Source: Gekko japonicus
Lineage: Eukaryota
Length of the DNA: 64,000 nucleotides
NCBI RefSeq assembly: GCF_001447785.1
Contig: NW_015162102.1
Span: 3,615 to 67,614, forward strand
Direction of reading: 5' to 3'
The position numbers and the translations under genes were made by a program. How positions within the stretch are numbered: position 1 is the stretch's first letter; every line of letters starts with the position of its first letter. Positions 30,540 to 58,485 of the stretch are shown here, one piece after another. The notes under the pieces were generated by a model, which was not told where the DNA came from, searched no databases, and saw only the letters and a list, made by a program, of their open reading frames with translations.

Positions 30540-30865
30540 CAATATGTTCCACAGGGGAGATCTGAGCCTCCTACCATAGGCCAGGTTCCAGTAGCATGCC
30601 CAAGCTACAAACCTGTTATTTCAGAAGGAGTGTAACCTCCTCCAGGACAGGTGGCTTTGCAGTCATTGAGCAGCTTCTTCATTGATCAACATCAACTCAG
30701 CCTCTTCTGGACTGACCTTCAGTTTTTTGGACCTCTTCCATCTAATTATTTTCTTCAGGCACCTATTCAGGACTTCTGCAGACCCACCTGGCTTAGCTGT
30801 TAAAGTGACATAGAGCTGGGTGTCATCCACATATTGGGTGTCATCCACATCTTTACTCCAAATCA
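30540..30865 (-). mobile_element. L2 LINE RT fragment
   Basis: YVDDTQLYVTL...LNRCLKKIIRW..KLKVSPEEAE. Confidence 0.75.
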
Positions 30866-32834: not shown

Positions 32835-33531
32835 TAGGGTTGCCATGCCCCAGGTCTGGCTGGGGGTCCCCCCACTTCTGGGGGCTTCAATCCATCCCCA
32901 TCCAGCTGGCAGGAGGGAGTCCCACCTCCAAGCTGCAGCCACCTTCAGCCACCCCTCTCCCTCCCCTCCTGCAGCAATTTAAAGGGCTTCAGCTGATTGA
33001 CAGGGAACACGTGGTCTGCTGATTAGCTGAAGAGCCCTTTAAATCTTTCAGCAGGGAGGGAGAGGGGCTGTAACCAGCCGCAAGGTCTTTTTGCAAGGGG
33101 GTTGGGGTCTGTGGTGTGCGGGGCTGATTTCCCAGTGGCAATTTGCCACTTGGGAGTCAGGCCCGTGCCACAGCCCCGCTCGCTGTGAGACCTGCAGCAA
33201 GCGGGGTGGTGGCGTCTGGGCCTGAATCCCAAGCAGCAAATGGCCATTGGGAAATCAGCCCTGTGTGCTGCAGCCTCCAACCCCACTTGCAGCCCCCTCT
33301 GTCCCTGCTGACAGTTTTAAAGGGCCATCCAGCTGATCAGCAAACCACTGTTAATCAGCTAAATACCTTTACATTGCTGCAGGAGGGGAGGCAGAGGGGT
33401 GGCTGTGTCTTGAAGGAGGGCTTAGGGGCATCCCCGCCCACCCCCGAACACCCCCCAAACCCCCCCCGGAAGGGCACCCAGAACACCCCCCAAATCCCCC
33501 CCTGGAAGGACGAGGGGACCTGGCAACCCTA
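32835..33531 (+). mobile_element. hAT MITE (TAGGGTTGCCA TIR), foldback interior
   Basis: TIRs TAGGGTTGCCA / TGGCAACCCTA and 8-bp TSD ACTGGATG. Confidence 0.92.
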
Positions 33532-35933
33532 ACTGGATGTTTTAGAATGCCCTTATTCCATTATTTCTAATTATATAATCCAGTTTTTATTGGATGCATT
33601 ATACCATTTTTTATTTATATATTCGAATTGCCTTGTTTATTATATATACTGGTCTTTGTTTTACTGTGATTTGCCTTGAGTGTCAATGAGAATGGTGCAT
33701 GATAAATGACATAAAATAAAATAAAAACAATATTTTATGACTTGGAGATTTCTTAAATAAAGGATTAAGAAATAGTATCACTGTAAGACAATGGACTCCT
33801 CCTCCCTGAAATAAAACTACACAAATACATAATAGTATGCCAAATATTACAAGAATAGCTGAACTTTGTGACCTTCATGAAGGCTCAGATAAATTTGCAT
33901 ATACTTGCTTATTTTGCATAATTTACACTGTTTCTATTAGACATGGATTAGATCCAGATGGATAGACTGAGTTCAGTGGAAGGGGAGAATCTTTACTGCA
34001 AATCTACAGAACTATCAGTGAAAAGTGAAGAACTGAAACAAATATAAAAAGAAACCAAGAGAATATTTTCTCATCCCTACTATTTCACATGCTAAGGTCC
34101 AGAGTGGAGGAATATGTTTATTATTGCTCCCAGCCACTGACTAATGACAAAACATTCTGGAGCCTTCAGTAGCAACAAGTAATTAACCTGAATAATTGGA
34201 GGGGACACTAACCCTGTCTTCCAGAAATTCTTCCCTGGGCCCCGTTGAATACGATCGCTAAAGCTTTTCCCAACTGTCAATAAAAGCTGCATTCCCTTTT
34301 GAGACATCAGTGCACAATGATTGTAACTATTGTTTGTGTACAATAGGGCTACCAAGATAGCAAAGTTAGACATTTTCTTTCAAATTCGAAGACTTCTCTG
34401 GGGGAAAGGATTCTGTAAAACACATCTCAAAGAACAATGCTAAAATCTGAGAGTGAAAGTAAAAGAGAAACTTGTCTATCAACAAGAATGATCCAATAGA
34501 TCACGGTCTTATCAAAGAATTTAGTCAAATTTCTTGAGAATTCAGCAACACTGATAAAACATGGAGAGAACTGAGAACAATTAATACAGGTAAGCACCTA
34601 ACGTCATTGCAGTTTATTTCCTAGTTTCTCTTTTAGAAATTCATGAAAACATGGCCCCTTTATTATGTATTTTGATGTATTTTGTAAGATAATAATGTCT
34701 AGCACAGCTCAATTATGGATTCCAATATGGAAGATACAATGAAGTAGTGATACTTTCAAAAACAGCAAAGTACCAAATTACCAACTGCAACCGCCTTTTA
34801 AATTCAGGCAATAAAGGTTTAAAAATCAGGTGGTAAATAATAACCCATGAATTAAATCAATGGCAGAGTTACTTTACTTGTAAAATTTGTTTTTAATGTT
34901 CACATTTCAATTTTTCTTACAATCCCCCACATCCTGAAAAAAATGAACAAATACTGAGACAGAACAAGATCAAAGAAATGGCAATAGAAGTTGCAAAAAC
35001 CACAGTAGCGGGATACCTTTTTATTAGAACCATCCCCTAAAGGTGAAACCAAAAAGGCAATAAAATCAGTTGACAAATACTGAGCATAAATCTCCTGCTT
35101 CTACCCTGCCCAACATCCCTCTATTTTTATTAAACCATTGAAACAGAGAGCAAAGTGTAGTATTTCAGCCTGACAAGTCAATCTTGGGGAACAATTAAGT
35201 GCCACAAAGAACTATGGTGAAATTTGTTAAATTATTTAGGATGGACATAACATTTGCCTGGTTACTTAACAGCTGCAACGTGTTACTACAATATTAATTT
35301 GGCTTTGTGCTTTTCCTGAGTTTAGTTGACATTTAGACCTCTTAGTGTGGTGCATCTCAGTAGGAAACAATTATACTCACAGGGTCCTTTGATGACTACC
35401 AAATAGTGCTGGCTACACGGGGAGAGTTGAATGGGAAGAATAGAAATCCTTTGTAGAGGTGCAAGTAATGTTCCCTTAGAACTCAAAACATACCTTCTAC
35501 CATGTTCCTTGGTTTGTATTAAGTTTGTTAAGCCTGCTGAAATCATCGACTTTTATTGATAAATCATCTGCCATAGTCTCCTTGCACCAGAGGAAAGCAC
35601 TACTATTAGTGGAAAGGATCTGTAGGATATGATCCATATTCCTGAGACATGGAGCATTGGAAGATAATGAAGTATTGTGTCAATCTAATTGTTATACGAT
35701 TTCCCATGAATAGTCTGAAATTTGCTGAGAAGCATATGTCAGTCGTATTCATACCTACATCTGCATATTGAGTATCATCTGCCTATTGGTGACACTGCAG
35801 CCCAAACCTCATGACAGCCTCTTCCAAAATACTGTTGACTGCTTGTTTGTCAGTGTGATATTTATAATGTTTACTTATTGGTTAACCTCATATTCTTAAA
35901 ACAAAAGTTAGTGCTAACATGAAAAGCGATTTG

Positions 35934-36780
35934 TTATTCAACATTTTTACAGTTCTTCTGACACTTGCAGAAAAGAGAACAATAGTCCAGCCTTCTTGCA
36001 CCTGCATGCATTAAATCTGCAAGGTTTCCAGCTACACAATGACAGTTATTGTATTCACACTTACATCTGCTTATTGGGTATCATCCACATATTGGTGACA
36101 CTGAAGCCCCAACCTCCTGATAACCTCTTCCAAAATAACCCTCAGTATGATTCTGAGACACTTTACTGGTGTAAACTGCCCATCCACCTCCTCCCAGCCA
36201 TTGTCCACAGGGTTCAGCATTGATTGGTTAGGAGGGAGGAGTGTTTCTCTGTGATGACTAGAAATGCCTGTTGAATATGTTCTCTGGTTGAGTTTGAAGT
36301 TGGTGGGAGAATATCCAGCGATCTGGTCAGCTCATCAAACGGGTCCACATCAGTATTCCTGGACCATACTCTGAAGAGGGACTTCTCCATGCTTGAAATT
36401 TCGCCCTGTGACAGACTGTCAGTTTCACCAAATTTTTCAAGAATCTTAAGAGGCTCTGCTGTCATTGCTGCCGATTTGGTCCCAACCACACTTAAAACAT
36501 GATAACCCGTTAGAATGTGGCACTTTACAATAATGCTGCATACTTCTGGTCCAAGCTTGGAAAGAAGATGATGTAAAGGAATGAAATGTTGTTTTTCTCC
36601 AGTCCCAAATCGACCCAAAGCTTATCTAAACCTTTGCTATGGAAGGTGGACATGTACCTCAGCAGTAGCACCAACACATCTTTATAATTTGATAATATTG
36701 CCACATGCTTTGCACAATGCTTGATTGCCCTGTTTGCAATGATCAGCCTCCTCATTATTGCTGTTGATTTCCTTAACCGC
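35934..36780 (-). pseudogene. AcademX-type DNA transposon protein relic: XPG/FEN1-like nuclease (C-terminal half) + Cys8 zinc finger
   Basis: Across frameshifts: EINSNNEEAD, AILSNYKDVLVLLL, GLDKLWV/RFGTGEKQHFIPLH, HILTGYHVLS, LPPTSNSTREHIQQA, NPVDNGWEEVDG, then NCHC..CRFNACRCKKAGL/CSLFCKCQKNCKN. Confidence 0.72.
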
Positions 36781-36782
36781 TA

Positions 36783-37070
36783 ATTAGTTACGTCTAGCTC
36801 TTCGACAGTTGCATAGAACTCTCTGTCAAGGAAGATGAAAGTCTTCAAGGAGCATGCAACACTGGGATTGTGGAGTTAGCAAATATATGTCCTGAACTCC
36901 TGTTCAGATGAGCAAGTACTAAACATATTCTCAAGAGAAAACCAACCTGAAACATCTTGCCCACCAAATGATTTCCAAGCAATCTGAAGAGGCACACATT
37001 ATTGGATGTGGAACTGTCACTGATGGCAAAGTTATCACTGCAGCACTACACTTGAATAATGAGAAGACTG
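36783..37070 (+). pseudogene. Inverted upstream segment of the same AcademX-type nuclease
   Basis: LFDSCIELSVKEDESLQGA (VFD..SIK..ER motif) and PVQMSKY*TYSQEKTNLKHLA..IIGCGTVTDG..NNEKTE. This joins conceptually to VKEINSNNEEAD on the minus strand. Confidence 0.62.
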
Positions 37071-37835
37071 AGGTTCCAAGGATGCTGCTGGTGTTCTGAA
37101 CTGGTGCTTGGAATCAGTAATGGGTTGCACAAGGGTGAACAAGCTGAAACGTAATCCTGACCAGACAGAGGTACTCTGTGTATGTAGAAAGGCAGACTAG
37201 AGACTTCAGATTTCTCCTGTATTGAATGGGGTTATACTCCCCTTGAAAAGTCAGGTTTGCAGCTTGGGAGTACTACTTGACATGGTGGTCACCTTAGAAA
37301 ATTGGTGGCCGCAGTGGTCTGGAGTGCTTTTGTCCAGCTTTGGCTGGTATGTCAGCTCCATCCATTCCTGGGTCACTCAGATCTAGCCATGGTGATCCAT
37401 GCCTTACTTACATCTATACTGGAGTACTGCAATGTACTGTACTTAGGGCTACCCTTGAAGAGTGTTCAGAGGCTGCAGCTAGTGAAGTACACTGAGTCTA
37501 GATTGCTGGTCAGGGCTAGCTGTCGGGAGGATGCGACCACAATATTACAACAATTAACCTGGCTACTGATCTTCTCCCGAGCCCAATTTAAGGTGTTTTT
37601 GACCTTCAAAGCCAAAACCAGGGTATTTAAAACATCATCTTCTCCCATATGTGCCTGCCTGGGAATTAAGATCACAGGGAGAGGCCCTCCTGACTGTCCG
37701 ATCAAAGGAGCTCATTTGGTGAGTACTCAAGAAAGGGTCTCTTCAGTGGCAGCCCCACAATCATAGAACAACCTCCCCAGGGAGGTGTATCAGGCCCCCT
37801 CACTTTTGATCTTTAGGAGGCAGCTGAAGGCAGTC
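37071..37835 (+). mobile_element. L2 LINE 3' part
   Basis: NKLKRNPDQTE and QLWLVCQLHPFL..IHALLTSILEYCNVLYLGLP..LQLV. Confidence 0.85.
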
Positions 37836-38614
37836 CATAAGACTCTAAAGTTAGAAAAAAGGACATATGCATTCCCTTTTTTCATCCGCTTGACAATCAC
37901 AAACCAGCCTTGACAAATTCCAGTAAGTTTAATATATTACTGCTGTAAGACCAACATATATTAACTGTGTACATTCAAGCATCATGCCGACACCAGGACC
38001 ATGGGGTTTTCAAGGGAACAGATGAGCAGAGGTGGTGTGTAAAACCAGCACAACTAGTAAAATATTTTAATACACGTGGCAGATTTTCGTAATGCATTTC
38101 CCACAGTAATCTCACCGATGCTACTGGGATGACTCTCAACTGATGTCAGTGTCAAGATGTCAGTATTCAATGGACCTGAGCATTTAGTAGATGTAATCAC
38201 TGAATAAGAAAGGAGTATTGGCAAAATAAAGCAAAAAAGAGAGAGAGCTTTCCGGATTTTTAAAAACAGCTTTCAGTTTGCTCAGAGCAATGTATTCCTT
38301 TTACAAGATTAAATGTAAGCAGCCACAACACAAAGTACAAATTTCTCTCTCAATCCTTGATTAGTCTCATTAGTTTTCTTGTAGCTTACAGCATGCAAAA
38401 CCTACTTTGCATCACATTATGTGTTCTGAAACAACAACACTTTAATCACACTGGGTATTAACAAAACAATCCTTCCTGAACAGCATGTCTTTAATTATTC
38501 CCTTGACTCTTAATCTATCATATGAAGACAAAAAAAGAAGGAGGAACTTCAACTTTTCTTCGCCAGAGCTTTGGCTGTAGATATTAGGAGAGCTTTCACA
38601 GATCTCTTTTCATC

Positions 38615-38750
38615 TGTGTCAGACTACAGTCTGGGAGTGACCCAGGTTCAAATCTCCACTCTGCCATGATAGGTCGCTGGGTGACTTTGGGTCAGTCACA
38701 TTCTCTCAGCCTAGCCTACTTCACAAGGTTGTTGAGGGGATACAACAGAG
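38615..38750 (+). mobile_element. MIR/Ther1-like SINE fragment
   Basis: CCCAGGTTCAAATCTCCACTCTGCCATG..GGGTGACTTTGGGTCAGTCAC. Confidence 0.65.
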
Positions 38751-39035
38751 GAAGAAGAAGAAGAGAAGAGATTGGATTTATACCCCGCCCTTCACACGGG
38801 GAGTCTCAGAGCGGCTTACAAACTCCTTTCCCTTCCCCTCCCCACAACAGACACCCTGTGAGGTGGGTGGGGCTGAGAGAACTCTGACACAAACTGCTCT
38901 TTTTCAAGGACAGCTGTGCCAGAGCTTGTGACTGACCCAAGGTCACATCAGCAGGTACAAGTGGAGGAGTGGGGAATCAAACCCGGTTCTCCCAGATTAG
39001 AGTCCGCACACTTAACCACTACACCAAACTGGCTC
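38751..39035 (-). mobile_element. Squam3-type SINE, full length
   Basis: tRNA-like head GAGCCAGTTTGGTGTAGTGGTTAAG, B box GGTTTGATTCC, (TTC)n tail. Confidence 0.9.
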
Positions 39036-39039
39036 AAAC

Positions 39040-39700
39040 ACATTGAACCTGATCTGGTATTCAACCTGAAGCCAGTGCAGCTGGTGGAGCACCAGTTGAA
39101 TGTGGGCTCTGAACAAAGTCCTCATGAGACCATGTGCCATCACATTCTGGACCAGTTGCAATTTCTGGGTCAGCCTCAAGAGTAGCCTGGCGTAGAGCAG
39201 GTTACAGTAGTCTACTCTGGAGGTGACCATTGTATGATTCACTGTGGCTGTGTCAGGGCAAGATGGGAAGGGAACCAATTGTGTGACCTGGCGCAGATGG
39301 AAAAATGCTAGTCTGGCCACATTTGTGACCCGGGCTTCCACAGAAAGGGAGGCATCCAGAATCACACCCAGGCTTCTGATGGTTGGCACTGGTGTTAAAG
39401 GCACATCGCCAAGAGCGGGGAGTTGGCAACCTAACCCCAAATTTCCCCGGCCCAGCCACAGAATCTCAGATGGATTTAATTTCAGCCGGCTTTGTTTCAA
39501 CCAACCAACCACAGCCTCCAAACCCTTGGCCAAAATATCCTGGGCAGTATTCAGCTGGCCATCAACAGATACAGCTGGGCTTCTTGATCGGCTATCAAAG
39601 AGAGAGGGGAACTTCATCTGTGTTATGGAGAAATAAAACAATGACTACAGGCATAAAAGTACCAAGCAGGATGTGGTCAGATAAAGAACGGTCACATATT
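39040..39700 (-). mobile_element. L2 LINE fragment
   Basis: WLKQSRLKLNPSE..RSLGVILD..AFFHLRQ..TSRVDYCN..KLQLVQN. Confidence 0.88.
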
Positions 39701-39706
39701 TTGATT

Positions 39707-40052
39707 AGAATAAGTTAATCTGAATAACACGATGAAGATACAAAGAGAAACAGACAGCAATACTAGCACAACAGAGTTTACAGGGATTTGGGTGCCATGT
39801 ATGAATGGTACAAAATTGAAAACAAAGCTCCCAAGTGCTCCAGAATTTTAGAAATAATGCTCTTACTATATTTATGCATGATCGTGTGGATCAGTCTGGA
39901 TTAGGGAATTTACAACTGGAAAGCATATTCACCTCAATTCATTTTAATTTAGTACCTGAGAAGCATGAGATGTACTTAAGCATTTAGGTTACTAGTCTTG
40001 TTCACAAGTTACAGTGACTGCACAAACAATCCATGTACACTTGATTGTTCTT
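39707..40052 (+). repeat. About 345-bp dispersed duplication of 41375-41702
   Basis: AGAATAAGTTAATCTGAATAACAC...CACTTGATTGTTCTT is highly similar at both loci, with an indel of about 18 bp. Confidence 0.92.
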
Positions 40053-40490: not shown

Positions 40491-42373
40491 TGTCAGCAAA
40501 AAGTTTAGGTAGAAGGTGTCCCTTTAGATATCCTGGTTCAAGACCATCTTGTGAATTGAACTTGTAGACAGGTGATGCAGCCAGTGAAGATTTTTAAAGA
40601 CTGGCTGGCAGCAGATATTCCCTTTGCCAGCAGCAAAAATGACAACTGGATTGGAATGACGACCTTGGCTTCTCCTCATGAACTTACAATATTTTATTAT
40701 GTTTATTATTATGAGTAAAAAAATATACATTCTGAAACCCTCCATAATCCTCAGTGACCATCTTCTACATTGATCCCGGAAGTGTCTGTTGTAATTCAGT
40801 CAGATATGAGGTGGTTCTGCTTTGACATTCCTCCATCCCATTTTATATCCAGGTAAACAGAATTCCTGCCACGGCTGTGCCGAATCCTGCTACAACAATA
40901 ACCAGTTCACTTGCATTATGCTCACAACAGGATTAGGCATCAAGAAGTATCCAAGCATAGGGACCATAGCAAAGATATCGATTACACAGTCTTCTTGCTC
41001 AGCATTAAATCTTAATCACAGAAATAGAGCGTGTGAGTCTTTACTCCTTATGTTGATTATGTTTTTATAGAAATTTGGGAAAGATGCCTTCTCATGGGCC
41101 CTCAGAATGTTGTTGCATATAATTGATAGCTTATTTTGTACAAGTAGTGAGTACTTTGTTGTTAAAGTCTGATAAAATACTAATTATAAAGACAGAAAGA
41201 GCGAGCAGACGTTAATAAAACGGACAGGGCCTGAGAGTTTGGGCTTACTGTAGAAAATACTTTGACTAGATCATTGCCAGCACATAAAAGGACAATAGGA
41301 TACTGAAACAGATTGAAACAGGACACTGAAAAAGGACATTGCAAATCGAAAAGCTGGAACGAAAGGCCACATGGAGAATAAGTTAATCTGAATAACACAA
41401 TGAAAATACAAAGAGAAACCACAGAGTTTACAGGGATTTGGGTGCCATGTATGAATGGTACAAAATTGTAAACAAAGCTCCCAAGTGCTCCAGAATTTTA
41501 GAAATAATGCTCTTACTATATTTATGAATGATCGTGTGGATCAGTCTGGATTAGGGAATTTACAACTGGAAAGCATATTCACCTCAATTCATTTTAATAT
41601 AGTACCTGAGAAGCATGAGACGTACTTAAGCATTTAGGTTACTAGTCTTGTTCACAAGTTACAGCAACTGCACAAACAATCCACGTACACTTGATTGTTC
41701 TTTCTATGAGTAAAACCTAATATTACAGTCAATGCATATATAGACTTGAACTATGACACAAACCCCACATTTATCTAGGTACTAGTCCCCAAGTTTAATT
41801 CATAGTGAATGCATACTGGCTCTTGCCTATAAGCAGATGTATGGACATAAAAGCGGTATGTATGTGCCCTCAATGCAACATGTGAATAGTGCCAGTTTTA
41901 TCCTGTTATGAGACATGTAGATGTCTGACTGTATTCTCAACCCTTCACAGATGTAACCGGCTAGCTAGGATGAGTTGGCTAAGTGGGTCCAGCAAATGAT
42001 AAAGGCCTGAGAGAAGGTGCAGTTTTGGCAGGTTTGAAAGAAGTGTTTCTGAGAAATCTTCTGAAGAAGATATTCCTGGAGCCAAATGAACTATATAGTT
42101 ACTGCTTGGTGGCTAAGGAAACTGGGGAAGTAAAGACAGTTAAAACAGAAAGAACAGCTCCGCAAGAGGATTTAAATTGATCAGCAATCTGAACACACCT
42201 CTCTGAACAAGAACAAGCTTCATCTGTTACTGGCAGGTGCCAGGTGATGGGTGCCAAAGACATTCCATGATTGAGGTACCACAATAGAAAGCTCCTGTCT
42301 ACCTCACCTCTGCAGCTGAGAGCACACAGAGGGTCTGGTCACACGGACCTCTTACTGCGGGCTTTTCGATTTA

Positions 42374-54851: not shown

Positions 54852-55689
54852 AACTTTCAAGCAGTTCATGGCAGTTCATGAATGGATATGTTTTCAGACA
54901 GACTTTCTCTGATCCATCAAAATGTTTACCAAAGTTCAAAGCAACAGGGGGTAGAGTTCTACAGCCTTGGAAGCACCAGTAGGGATCCTCCAAAGCTTAA
55001 CAAGCACTGCTGGCTGTCAATAACAGACTTTCCATTCTGCTCTATGGGATCACAATGCTATTATATACCCTCAGCTCAGCCCTGCACCCATCCCTCTGTT
55101 GGGTGTTGGCAGTCAGAAAGCCAGGGAACTTGTTAAAAGTACTGTGAACACCTCTCCCCTGGTGGGTGTTAGGCGGACTCAGGGCTCTGAGCCATCCCAT
55201 CTCTCTGCTCACACCGAGCAGAGGGGCTTAGCTACTAGGTGCCTCAGCTGAGAACCCACATTTATACCACCCCACCCCTCCTGATTGTGAGCACCTCTGT
55301 GCCAACATGCTGGCAGTGGTGAAGGCTGTGCTCATCAAGGGCATCATCTGCCTGGTGCACATGCTTCACGTGGTCTGTACAAGCTGGCCTGTATCTGTGA
55401 CCCCTGGATAAAAGGCAGCACTGCTCTTGGGAATGAAGAGCTCATGCAATGGAAGCTTGAGCTCAGCAAAGAAGTATGGAGGCTACAGGCCAACAGATGT
55501 GGCCAGAGGGAACAGCAGGTGGAAGAGGATAGGGAGGAGGAGGAAGAAGAGAGGAGGAGAGGGGGAACTGCAGCCCAGCGCCTCTGCCTCGAAGAGCCCA
55601 ACCAGGGAGAAGTCACACTGCTGGTTGTCAGTGGTGAACTGGGAGGTCAGCAGCGGTGGGGATGCCAGGTGTGTAATGGTGGAGGATTT

Positions 55690-55981
55690 GGAAGAGGTGA
55701 TGGTGAGGGAGTACCTCACTGAGTCTCCTGAGCCTGCTGACACTGATACCCTGGAGTACTGGTCACACAAGCCTGTCATCTGGCCCAATGTATCTTGTGT
55801 GGCCATAAGTCTCCCCTCCTGCCCTCTCACCACTGTCGAGAGTGAGCGGGTGTTCCCCCACCTGGGAAACATTCACAGCCCCAACCACTGCTGCCTGGAC
55901 CTGGCCAGGATGGACAAGTTGGCCTTCCTGAAGGTCAACCTCCCCATGCTGGGCGACCTCGCTCTGGATCTCACAGACTAA
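55690..55981 (+). pseudogene. hAT transposase dimerisation (hATC) domain relic
   Basis: EYL..DTLEYW..WPNVSCVAISLPSCPLTTVESERVF..LAFLKVN. Confidence 0.85.
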
Positions 55982-57361: not shown

Positions 57362-58425
57362 TCTGCAGCCAGACCAGTGCCAGAAGGCAAACCGGCTGCC
57401 CTGACTCCACAGAACCAGCAGCAGATCACTTCCAGTCTCTGGCTGGGCAGGGTCTGCCCAGGTGACGTTTCCCTATGAGTTTGGTGTCACTGGCTTGTTC
57501 CTGAACCATTCCATAGACTCCTGTAACTGCCGCTTTCTTATCCAAATAGAGCACTGGGGTGTCTGTAACTGAGACCCCAGAAATATAATCTGCCCCAACC
57601 TGGAGAGATTGTAGAAGAGCAGGCAGCAGGATGAGGCTCCCTTTGTGTTTGGTATGTGTAGCTTGCAGGGAGTCCATTCTATACACATTTGAACCTGTGC
57701 CTGACATTTTCCCCAAAAGCACTTTCCTGGGGTCATCCTCTTTGTGGGGCCACAACTTGGACCCCCAAAGTCCAAACTACACCTAAGTTGGAGGGCATGT
57801 AGAGGAGCCTCATGGGGAGGATCTCCTGTGAGTCTGATCTCTCTAGCTTGCCCAGTCTGCAGCCAGACCAGTGCCAGAAGGCACACCGGCTGCCCTGACT
57901 CCTCCACACACAGAACCAGCAGCAGATCACTTCCAGTCTCTGGCTGGGCAGGGTCTGCCCAGGTGACGTTTCCCTATGAGTTTGGTGTCACTGGCTTGTT
58001 CCTGAACCATTCCATAGACTCCTGTAACTGCCGCTTTCTTATCCAAATAGAGCACTGGGGTGTCTGTAACTGAGACCCCAGAAATATAATCTGCCCCAAC
58101 CTGGAGAGATTGTAGAAGAGCAGGCAGCAGGATGAGGCTCCCTTTGTGTTTGGTATGTGTAGCTTGCAGGGAGTCCATTCTATACACATTTGAACCTGTG
58201 CCTGACATTTCCCCCAAAAGCACTTTTCTGGGGTCATCTTCTTTGTGGGGCCACAACTTGGACCCCACCCCCCAAAGTCCAAACTACACCTAAATTGGAG
58301 GGCATGTAGAGGAGCATCATGGAGAGGATCCCCTGTGAGTCTGATCTCTCTAGCTTGCCCAGGGTCCATTCTATACACTCCTGAACCTGTGCCTGTCATT
58401 TGCCCAGAAAGCACTTTCATGGGAC
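57362..58425 (+). repeat. Tandem duplication of about 500 bp (494 + 507 bp) plus a partial sub-repeat
   Basis: TCTGCAGCCAGACCAGTGCCAGAAGG starts at 57362 and 57856. The units are near-identical with small indels. Confidence 0.92.
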
Positions 58426-58485
58426 CACATTTTTTGGGGGGGGGGGGGTAACTCGGACCCCATCAAGCCAACCCTCACCAAACTT

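Follow-up and report, generated by a model that had tools for sequence, protein, structure and literature searches.

Identity of the relic

Short peptide fragments lie on both strands at 35934-37072 of the window (the whole stretch of 64,000 nucleotides that was analysed), and they raise the question of whether they descend from one transposon gene, to which family that gene belonged, and how the family reached its host. Frameshift-aware alignment to the intact relative P0185 resolved the region as the C-terminal 360 residues of an AcademX-type transposase, encoded in pieces (Table 1). P0185, recovered by profile search (44 matches among 8000 scored), is a protein of 1582 amino acids on a Logan contig of 6063 nt and is identical with P0223. 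With the DNA as assembled, the alignment scored 632 and covered P0185 residues 1318-1581. Turning the plus-strand piece added 172 points, giving 804 over residues 1222-1581, and omitting the 87-nt insert as well raised the score to 840, with 188 of 338 residues identical; alignments to shuffled versions of P0185 scored 32-39 in all three shuffles.

Table 1. Parts of the relic and adjoining LINE-derived pieces, in window coordinates (the L2 names are presumptive)
Feature	Position	Strand	Remarks
Inverted upstream nuclease piece	36783..37072	+	P0185 residues ~1222-1318; one frameshift, one stop; tblastn of P0185: 67% over 30 aa, 41% over 64 aa, E 2e-13
Main body, FEN1/XPG-type nuclease domain	36138..36777	-	P0185 ~1319-1542; three frameshifts; EEAD, SNDTD-type and TGxD-type motifs, LPPTS; includes the 135-aa open piece 36214-36621
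87-nt insert, L2-type LINE reverse transcriptase (YADD-type motif region)	36051..36137	-	29 extra codons relative to P0185; between nuclease domain and cysteine cluster
Terminal cysteine cluster and transposase stop codon	35934..36050	-	nine Cys across two frameshifts, spanning 35951-36044; aligner offsets the first pair by one Cys at the frameshift
Truncated L2-type LINE fragment	37073..37829	+	adjoins right inversion breakpoint; high-copy; loose contig ends at 37829, where other copies extend further
Second copy of the 87-nt L2-derived piece	35745..35831	-	86% identical, same borders, ~100 nt past the stop codon

The peptide pieces quoted in the original prediction are present in a six-frame translation of 35300-37200 and collinear with the homologues, and the one insertion and one inversion that it proposed were both recovered by the alignment to P0185. 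The FDSC and MSKY..EKTNL motifs lie on the plus strand at 36798-37072, while the remaining pieces run on the minus strand from 36777 down to the stop codon at 35934-35936. The open piece found 397 representative proteins at E<=0.001 (150 of the 397 listed; best 7e-22), and a search of 301 candidates returned one match, a 1547-aa protein of Nucella lapillus (43% identity, E 7.7e-19). These relatives also align to the other pieces of the relic, in order. The stitched reading is real and far above chance. That a chance assembly of motifs, or an assembly artefact, lies behind the inversion and the stitched reading is scarcely credible: the window does have assembly gaps elsewhere (runs of N) and many repeats, but shuffled and reversed controls score far below the relic, and single contigs run unbroken across the inversion junction in organisms A, B and C, which refutes an artefactual inversion.

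The relic is, at a probability of about 0.9, what is left of an AcademX cut-and-paste DNA transposon: a dead copy, truncated at its 5' end. Its putative membership of AcademX is drawn from its relatives, since the window holds no DDE domain, TIR or TSD. A profile of 28 full-length relatives gave no match in the window upstream of position 1228, and none beyond the right breakpoint, that exceeded the reversed control (5.6 bits for the best outside match, 4.1 for the control); the domain is missing because the copy is truncated. The 5' end of the relic is lost, and 33000-40000 contains no TIR-like pair. A 17-nt inverted pair (36743-36759/37055-37071) could suggest a TIR or a duplication of the EEAD motif, but both readings were rejected, as P0185 has the two stretches consecutively; the pair represents similar runs of codons in the gene, brought into opposite orientation by the inversion. 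Pfam gave no family at cut-off for eight pieces of the window.

Architecture of the family

The fold of the nuclease region was predicted on a relative, P0035, which shares 41% identity with the open piece (E 4.7e-13) and was modelled from an alignment of 54 with a pLDDT of 90. Its 17 best structural matches among 48,161 chains are all 5' nucleases, the next having a Z score of 6.9. EXO1 ranks first (Z 15.4, rmsd 3.5, 257 aligned), followed by XRN1, T5 exonuclease, GEN1, FEN1 and XPG at about 12 (XPG Z 12.2), and Foldseek returned the same 5' nuclease families. The model predicted for P0035 supports placing the relic region in the FEN1/EXO1/XPG-type nuclease fold. With the relic pieces aligning along this domain, the XPG/FEN1-like nuclease of the original prediction holds.

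Full-length relatives supply the parts that the relic has lost. The upstream region of P0173, modelled from an alignment of 25 with a pLDDT of 76, resembles P-element transposase (Z 11.7, rmsd 4.8, 300 aligned), with Hermes at Z 7.2 and integrases lower; Foldseek found no match for this DDE model at E<=0.001 (best Hermes, E 0.19). D514/D517, D687 and D937/E941 are conserved in the DDE region of the full-length relatives. AcademX proteins carry a Cys8 pattern, C-x-C-x3,4-C-x3,4-C-x-C-x6-C-x3-C-x1,2-C, and the elements have the TIR termini TAG..CTA. A relaxed form of the pattern fits 30 of the 39 homologue tails examined. In the relic, the predicted cysteine finger appears as nine terminal cysteines at the positions of the P0185 cluster, read across two frameshifts. 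The XPG/FEN1-type fold and the upstream DDE fold of the relatives, together with this cluster, agree with the assignment to AcademX made at the outset.

Other searches for recognizable domains and ends returned little. Pfam yielded no family at cut-off for 12 + 12 relatives, and no helicase family among the relatives scanned (12 proteins in each of two sets). The family profile picked up only one chance match among PDB sequences, and none of seven candidates among proteins of near length passed. A search of JGI metagenomes for DNA of relatives, in which TIRs might be seen, gave 51 and 159 pattern matches, none of them confirmed. Atlas searches led only to eukaryotic clusters with weak TCR, XPG_I and DUF6589 leads, DUF6589 occurring in 13% of one cluster; the Pfam scan gave a weak DUF6589 lead for P0165 (E 0.027).

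The active ancestor would have encoded one protein of about 1580 residues, in which a central DDE (RNase H-fold) transposase would have excised the element and joined it to new sites. The 5' nuclease of FEN1/EXO1/XPG type in the C-terminal part most likely removed flaps or overhangs, either at the element's ends or at its target, a putative role that would fit the 3-4 bp duplications reported for AcademX. The terminal cysteine cluster probably bound zinc and DNA.

A fold shared with host 5' nucleases also invites the reading that the relic is a pseudogene or domesticated gene of FEN1, EXO1, GEN1 or ASTE1 type. This is very improbable, as the structural matches are only 8-15% identical, against 40-56% for the transposon-like relatives, and in sequence searches the family profile detects no host nuclease of solved structure. 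The frameshifts and the loss of acidic residues give no sign of constraint, and the copies are dispersed and 17% apart. Somewhat less improbable, though still clearly unlikely, is that an element of the same architecture belongs to a separate transposon group outside Repbase's Academ superfamily: Pfam yields no family, and the DUF6589 leads are weak only. Against this stand the length of the relatives (1550-1650 aa), the order of DDE, XPG-like and cysteine parts, and contigs of 5-7.5 kb, all of which fit Academ. The contig sizes also fit the 5.6-kb mean of curated bivalve Academ elements given in the available part of PMC10294476.

A piece of the nuclease family occurs as well in P0214 (Epinephelus coioides, 612 aa), joined to PF05485 and PF13359; this protein probably reflects a chimeric gene model that spans nested transposons.

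Decay of this copy

Alignment to P0185 places six frameshifts in the relic, at about 36895, 36738, 36610, 36251, 36037 and 35982, one in-frame stop at 36920, and in-frame losses of 5 and 8 codons. Among the acidic residues conserved in full-length relatives, D1224, E1326, E1327, D1329 and D1355 (P0185 numbering) are kept, while D1353 and D1414 have become Tyr and D1415 has become His; all nine terminal cysteines survive. D1353 and D1415 of P0185 are, on the FEN1 motifs, presumably metal ligands, and with both replaced the nuclease would be inactive even if made. The relic has no working protein product.

In an RNA run of which 3 in 100 was read, only 4 of 1411 reads mapped over 35100-38100 were at least 99% alike, on both strands, so that no transcript of this copy was seen in that sample. 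None of the listed runs that contain the relic sequence is an RNA run.

The inversion, the presumed L2 insert and a proposed order of events

The inversion is old and real, being shared by orthologous contigs that differ by 4-7%. Its junction is crossed unbroken by one contig of the same organism and by one contig each of two related organisms, B and C, in which other contigs run into the insert. Since contigs of B and C share both the inversion and the insert, both predate the split of A, B and C. One other copy lacks the 87-nt insert and joins 36046 to 36152 with 17 letters instead of 105.

The insert at 36051-36137 and the fragment at 37073-37829 are LINE pieces that we take to be L2. In each of the three DNA runs, LINE contigs connect 36075 with 37073 or 37092 on opposite strands. 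The LINE part that follows the piece in the insert begins on the plus strand at 37073, right where the inversion has its second breakpoint, and four letters are common to both breakpoints. On the simplest reading, a truncated L2 inserted into the gene and a later inversion turned it together with the preceding piece, and the fragment at the right breakpoint was probably co-inverted with the upstream piece. The relic copy would have lost about three quarters of its gene, then received the 87-nt LINE insert, and then undergone the inversion where the truncated L2 had landed. A twin-primed LINE insertion was rejected as the sole cause of the rearrangement, for a single event of this kind does not account for the order of the pieces.

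That the insert is a piece of L2, with the next L2 part at the other breakpoint and a second 87-nt copy nearby, had been overlooked in the original prediction. The two 87-nt pieces lie 306 nt apart, and both have a partly doubled YADD-type motif; a comparable slip duplication of this motif is present in another LINE copy at 30816-30850.

Further repeats surround the relic. An uninterrupted 909-aa CR1-type ORF2 with endonuclease and reverse transcriptase (RVT_1) occupies 256-2985 on the minus strand and represents a young LINE copy, and 55412-55981 on the plus strand holds a hAT transposase C-terminal dimerisation remnant (PF05699, E 5e-11). Nested inverted repeats with arms of 56 and 67 nt, MITE-like or a SINE pair, are found at 33011-33348, and a repeat near 38640-39030 is presumably Sauria-SINE-like. 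Closely similar segments with near-identical translations, about 1.7 kb apart (39690-39990 and 41180-41640), form a local repeat. A near-exact tandem duplication of about 500 nt at 57400-58460, with nearly identical ORFs at 57426-57776 and 57927-58283, lies just before an assembly gap and may be an assembly artefact. No tRNA gene was found in the window. The repeat types (CR1, hAT, L2 and Sauria-SINE-like, under presumptive labels) fit a lizard, probably a gecko.

Other copies and age of the family

Part of 35700-37100 is present in 18 of the 24 listed runs, which come from three organisms (A, B and C) and 8 studies. Four of the 24 runs were compared at 80% likeness, on their best rows only (for example the best 40 of 544), and the best-matching run may be the source of the window itself. 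In A, B and C, several contigs per DNA run carry variant letters over 36323-36508; at the listed sites such contigs number up to 5, 7 and 5, respectively, figures that count contigs and not copies. At position 36504, the letter needed for Asp at D1414 was seen in at least 5, 6 and 2 contigs, and missing letters are restored, with the frame intact, in contigs at 35982, 36242 and 36611. Contigs that restore the frame or lack the insert indicate that the damage is particular to this copy and that other copies exist. The AcademX trait of a dispersed, multi-copy repeat was thus observed in all three organisms.

Two paralogous contigs differ from the relic by 17.1% each (about 83% DNA identity), a figure that is a floor on the spread of copies, as the 80% cut-off hides more distant ones. 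Orthologous contigs of B and C differ from it by 4.0-8.8%. With copies still at about 83% DNA identity, the burst was probably much younger than the amniotes. The original prediction had offered an ancient fossil as one possible origin; in the sense of an amniote-age element this is disfavoured by the identity of the two contigs measured. The family would have multiplied to a modest copy number in the ancestor of A, B and C. Additionally, the Logan contig of P0125 (2584 nt) encodes a decayed piece of 97 aa that is 58-59% identical to the relic and is probably another copy of its family.

Relation to P0185 and the origin of the family

Over the C-terminal region the relic is 56% identical to P0185, compared with 39-44% for the rest of the 15 best-scoring proteins, and P0185 is itself 40-46% identical to 26 other full-length members in the same region. 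In a tree of 46 rows, with 45 of 224 matches picked by coverage, the relic and P0185 are sisters (91/86, unstarred) and the relic branch is long. P0125 and the relic have the same residue at 58 of 97 positions, and P0185 matches them at 39 of these 58 (67%), which suggests an active ancestor roughly two thirds identical to P0185. By these comparisons P0185 would represent a sister family, neither the donor nor the source element. The intact P0185/P0223 could serve to test what the nuclease domain does.

The strongest alternative on origin is vertical descent, the family having stayed active in this lineage since early vertebrates or amniotes without horizontal transfer. It concerns origin only, is compatible with a dead AcademX copy, and has a chance not far short of even. 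The accessible parts of two sources lend it weight, one recording an amniote-age Academ fossil in turtle and human (PMC9004415) and the other low-level Academ transcripts in a caecilian (PMC8498967); furthermore, the 67% match of the agreed positions to P0185 is distant enough for long separate descent. On the other side, no paper on an Academ family of lizards or snakes was found among the matches listed in the literature searched, which lay mostly outside subscription journals and Repbase Reports, and 12 of the 13 supplements of PMC6050309 hold no Academ. The per-copy Academ transfer rate is also high, at 638.9 per million copies according to the part of PMC12400950 available, a screen of 247 animal genomes.

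That rate makes horizontal transfer a plausible origin of the family, and no more. The full scenario is more tentative than the vertical one and, taken whole, rather doubtful: an uncatalogued AcademX family would have entered a gecko-like lizard lineage horizontally, well after the amniotes had radiated and out of a lineage akin to the P0185 host, risen there to a few tens of copies, and become extinct before the split of A, B and C.

Significance

The relic itself is functionless, and it serves as a marker of an AcademX family that transposed in this lineage recently enough to leave copies about 83% alike. The sole other amniote Academ trace found in the literature searched is a faint fossil of 152 bp, in the accessible part of PMC9004415. 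With that fossil already in print, the novelty suggested in the original prediction is smaller than claimed. The one supplement of the same paper contained no Academ match. Repbase, Dfam or supplementary repeat tables may well hold squamate Academ entries. If Repbase and Dfam hold this family, the relic is one more decayed repeat copy; if they lack it, the family extends the range of a poorly studied superfamily that combines a DDE transposase with a FEN1-type nuclease, and offers a testable case of horizontal transfer. Should the horizontal reading be true, no burst of Academ activity would have been described in a squamate before this one, and more complete copies could reveal, for the first time in an amniote, the ends and target duplications of AcademX.

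Comparison with known Academ systems

The AcademX layout, reportedly set out by Kapitonov and Jurka (2010) and by Kojima (2020), runs from DDE to an XPG-like part and then to a cysteine cluster. The full-length relatives share it as one long ORF with DDE, XPG/FEN1-type nuclease and cysteine cluster, and they share the dispersed copies; the relic itself shows the last two parts only. It differs in keeping the last 360 of about 1580 residues, rearranged and dead, with no TIR or TSD seen, and in having a reptile-like host genome. In the available part of PMC10045372, AcademX is said to carry a nuclease and to generate TSDs of 3-4 bp, a length linked to that enzyme, and AcademH to carry a helicase and to generate TSDs of 9-10 bp. 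AcademH belongs to the same superfamily as the relic and differs in its RecQ-like helicase, in whose place the relatives have a C-terminal 5' nuclease. Further background is given in the accessible parts of PMC5751038, PMC4455052, PMC10799480 and PMC5753468.

P0185 is the nearest relative found and differs from the relic in being intact. The Nucella lapillus (dog whelk) proteins KAL8619946.1 (P0001) and KAL8560026.1 (P0171) have the same architecture and are 43% identical over the open piece; these mollusc copies are young and intact, and more distant from the relic than P0185. At 90% identity their cluster comprises 44 members, and those listed are spread over many contigs, as expected of a transposon. 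For bivalves, the available part of PMC10294476 reports 100 curated Academ families with a mean length of 5565 bp. The closest parallel within amniotes is the Academ fossil of amniote age that was found via turtle and mapped to human chromosome 4 near NDST4 (152 bp, E 0.0067; Frith 2022, PMC9004415, Table 3, in the part accessible). Both are Academ protein fossils in amniotes; the family of the relic is much better preserved, and hence much younger.
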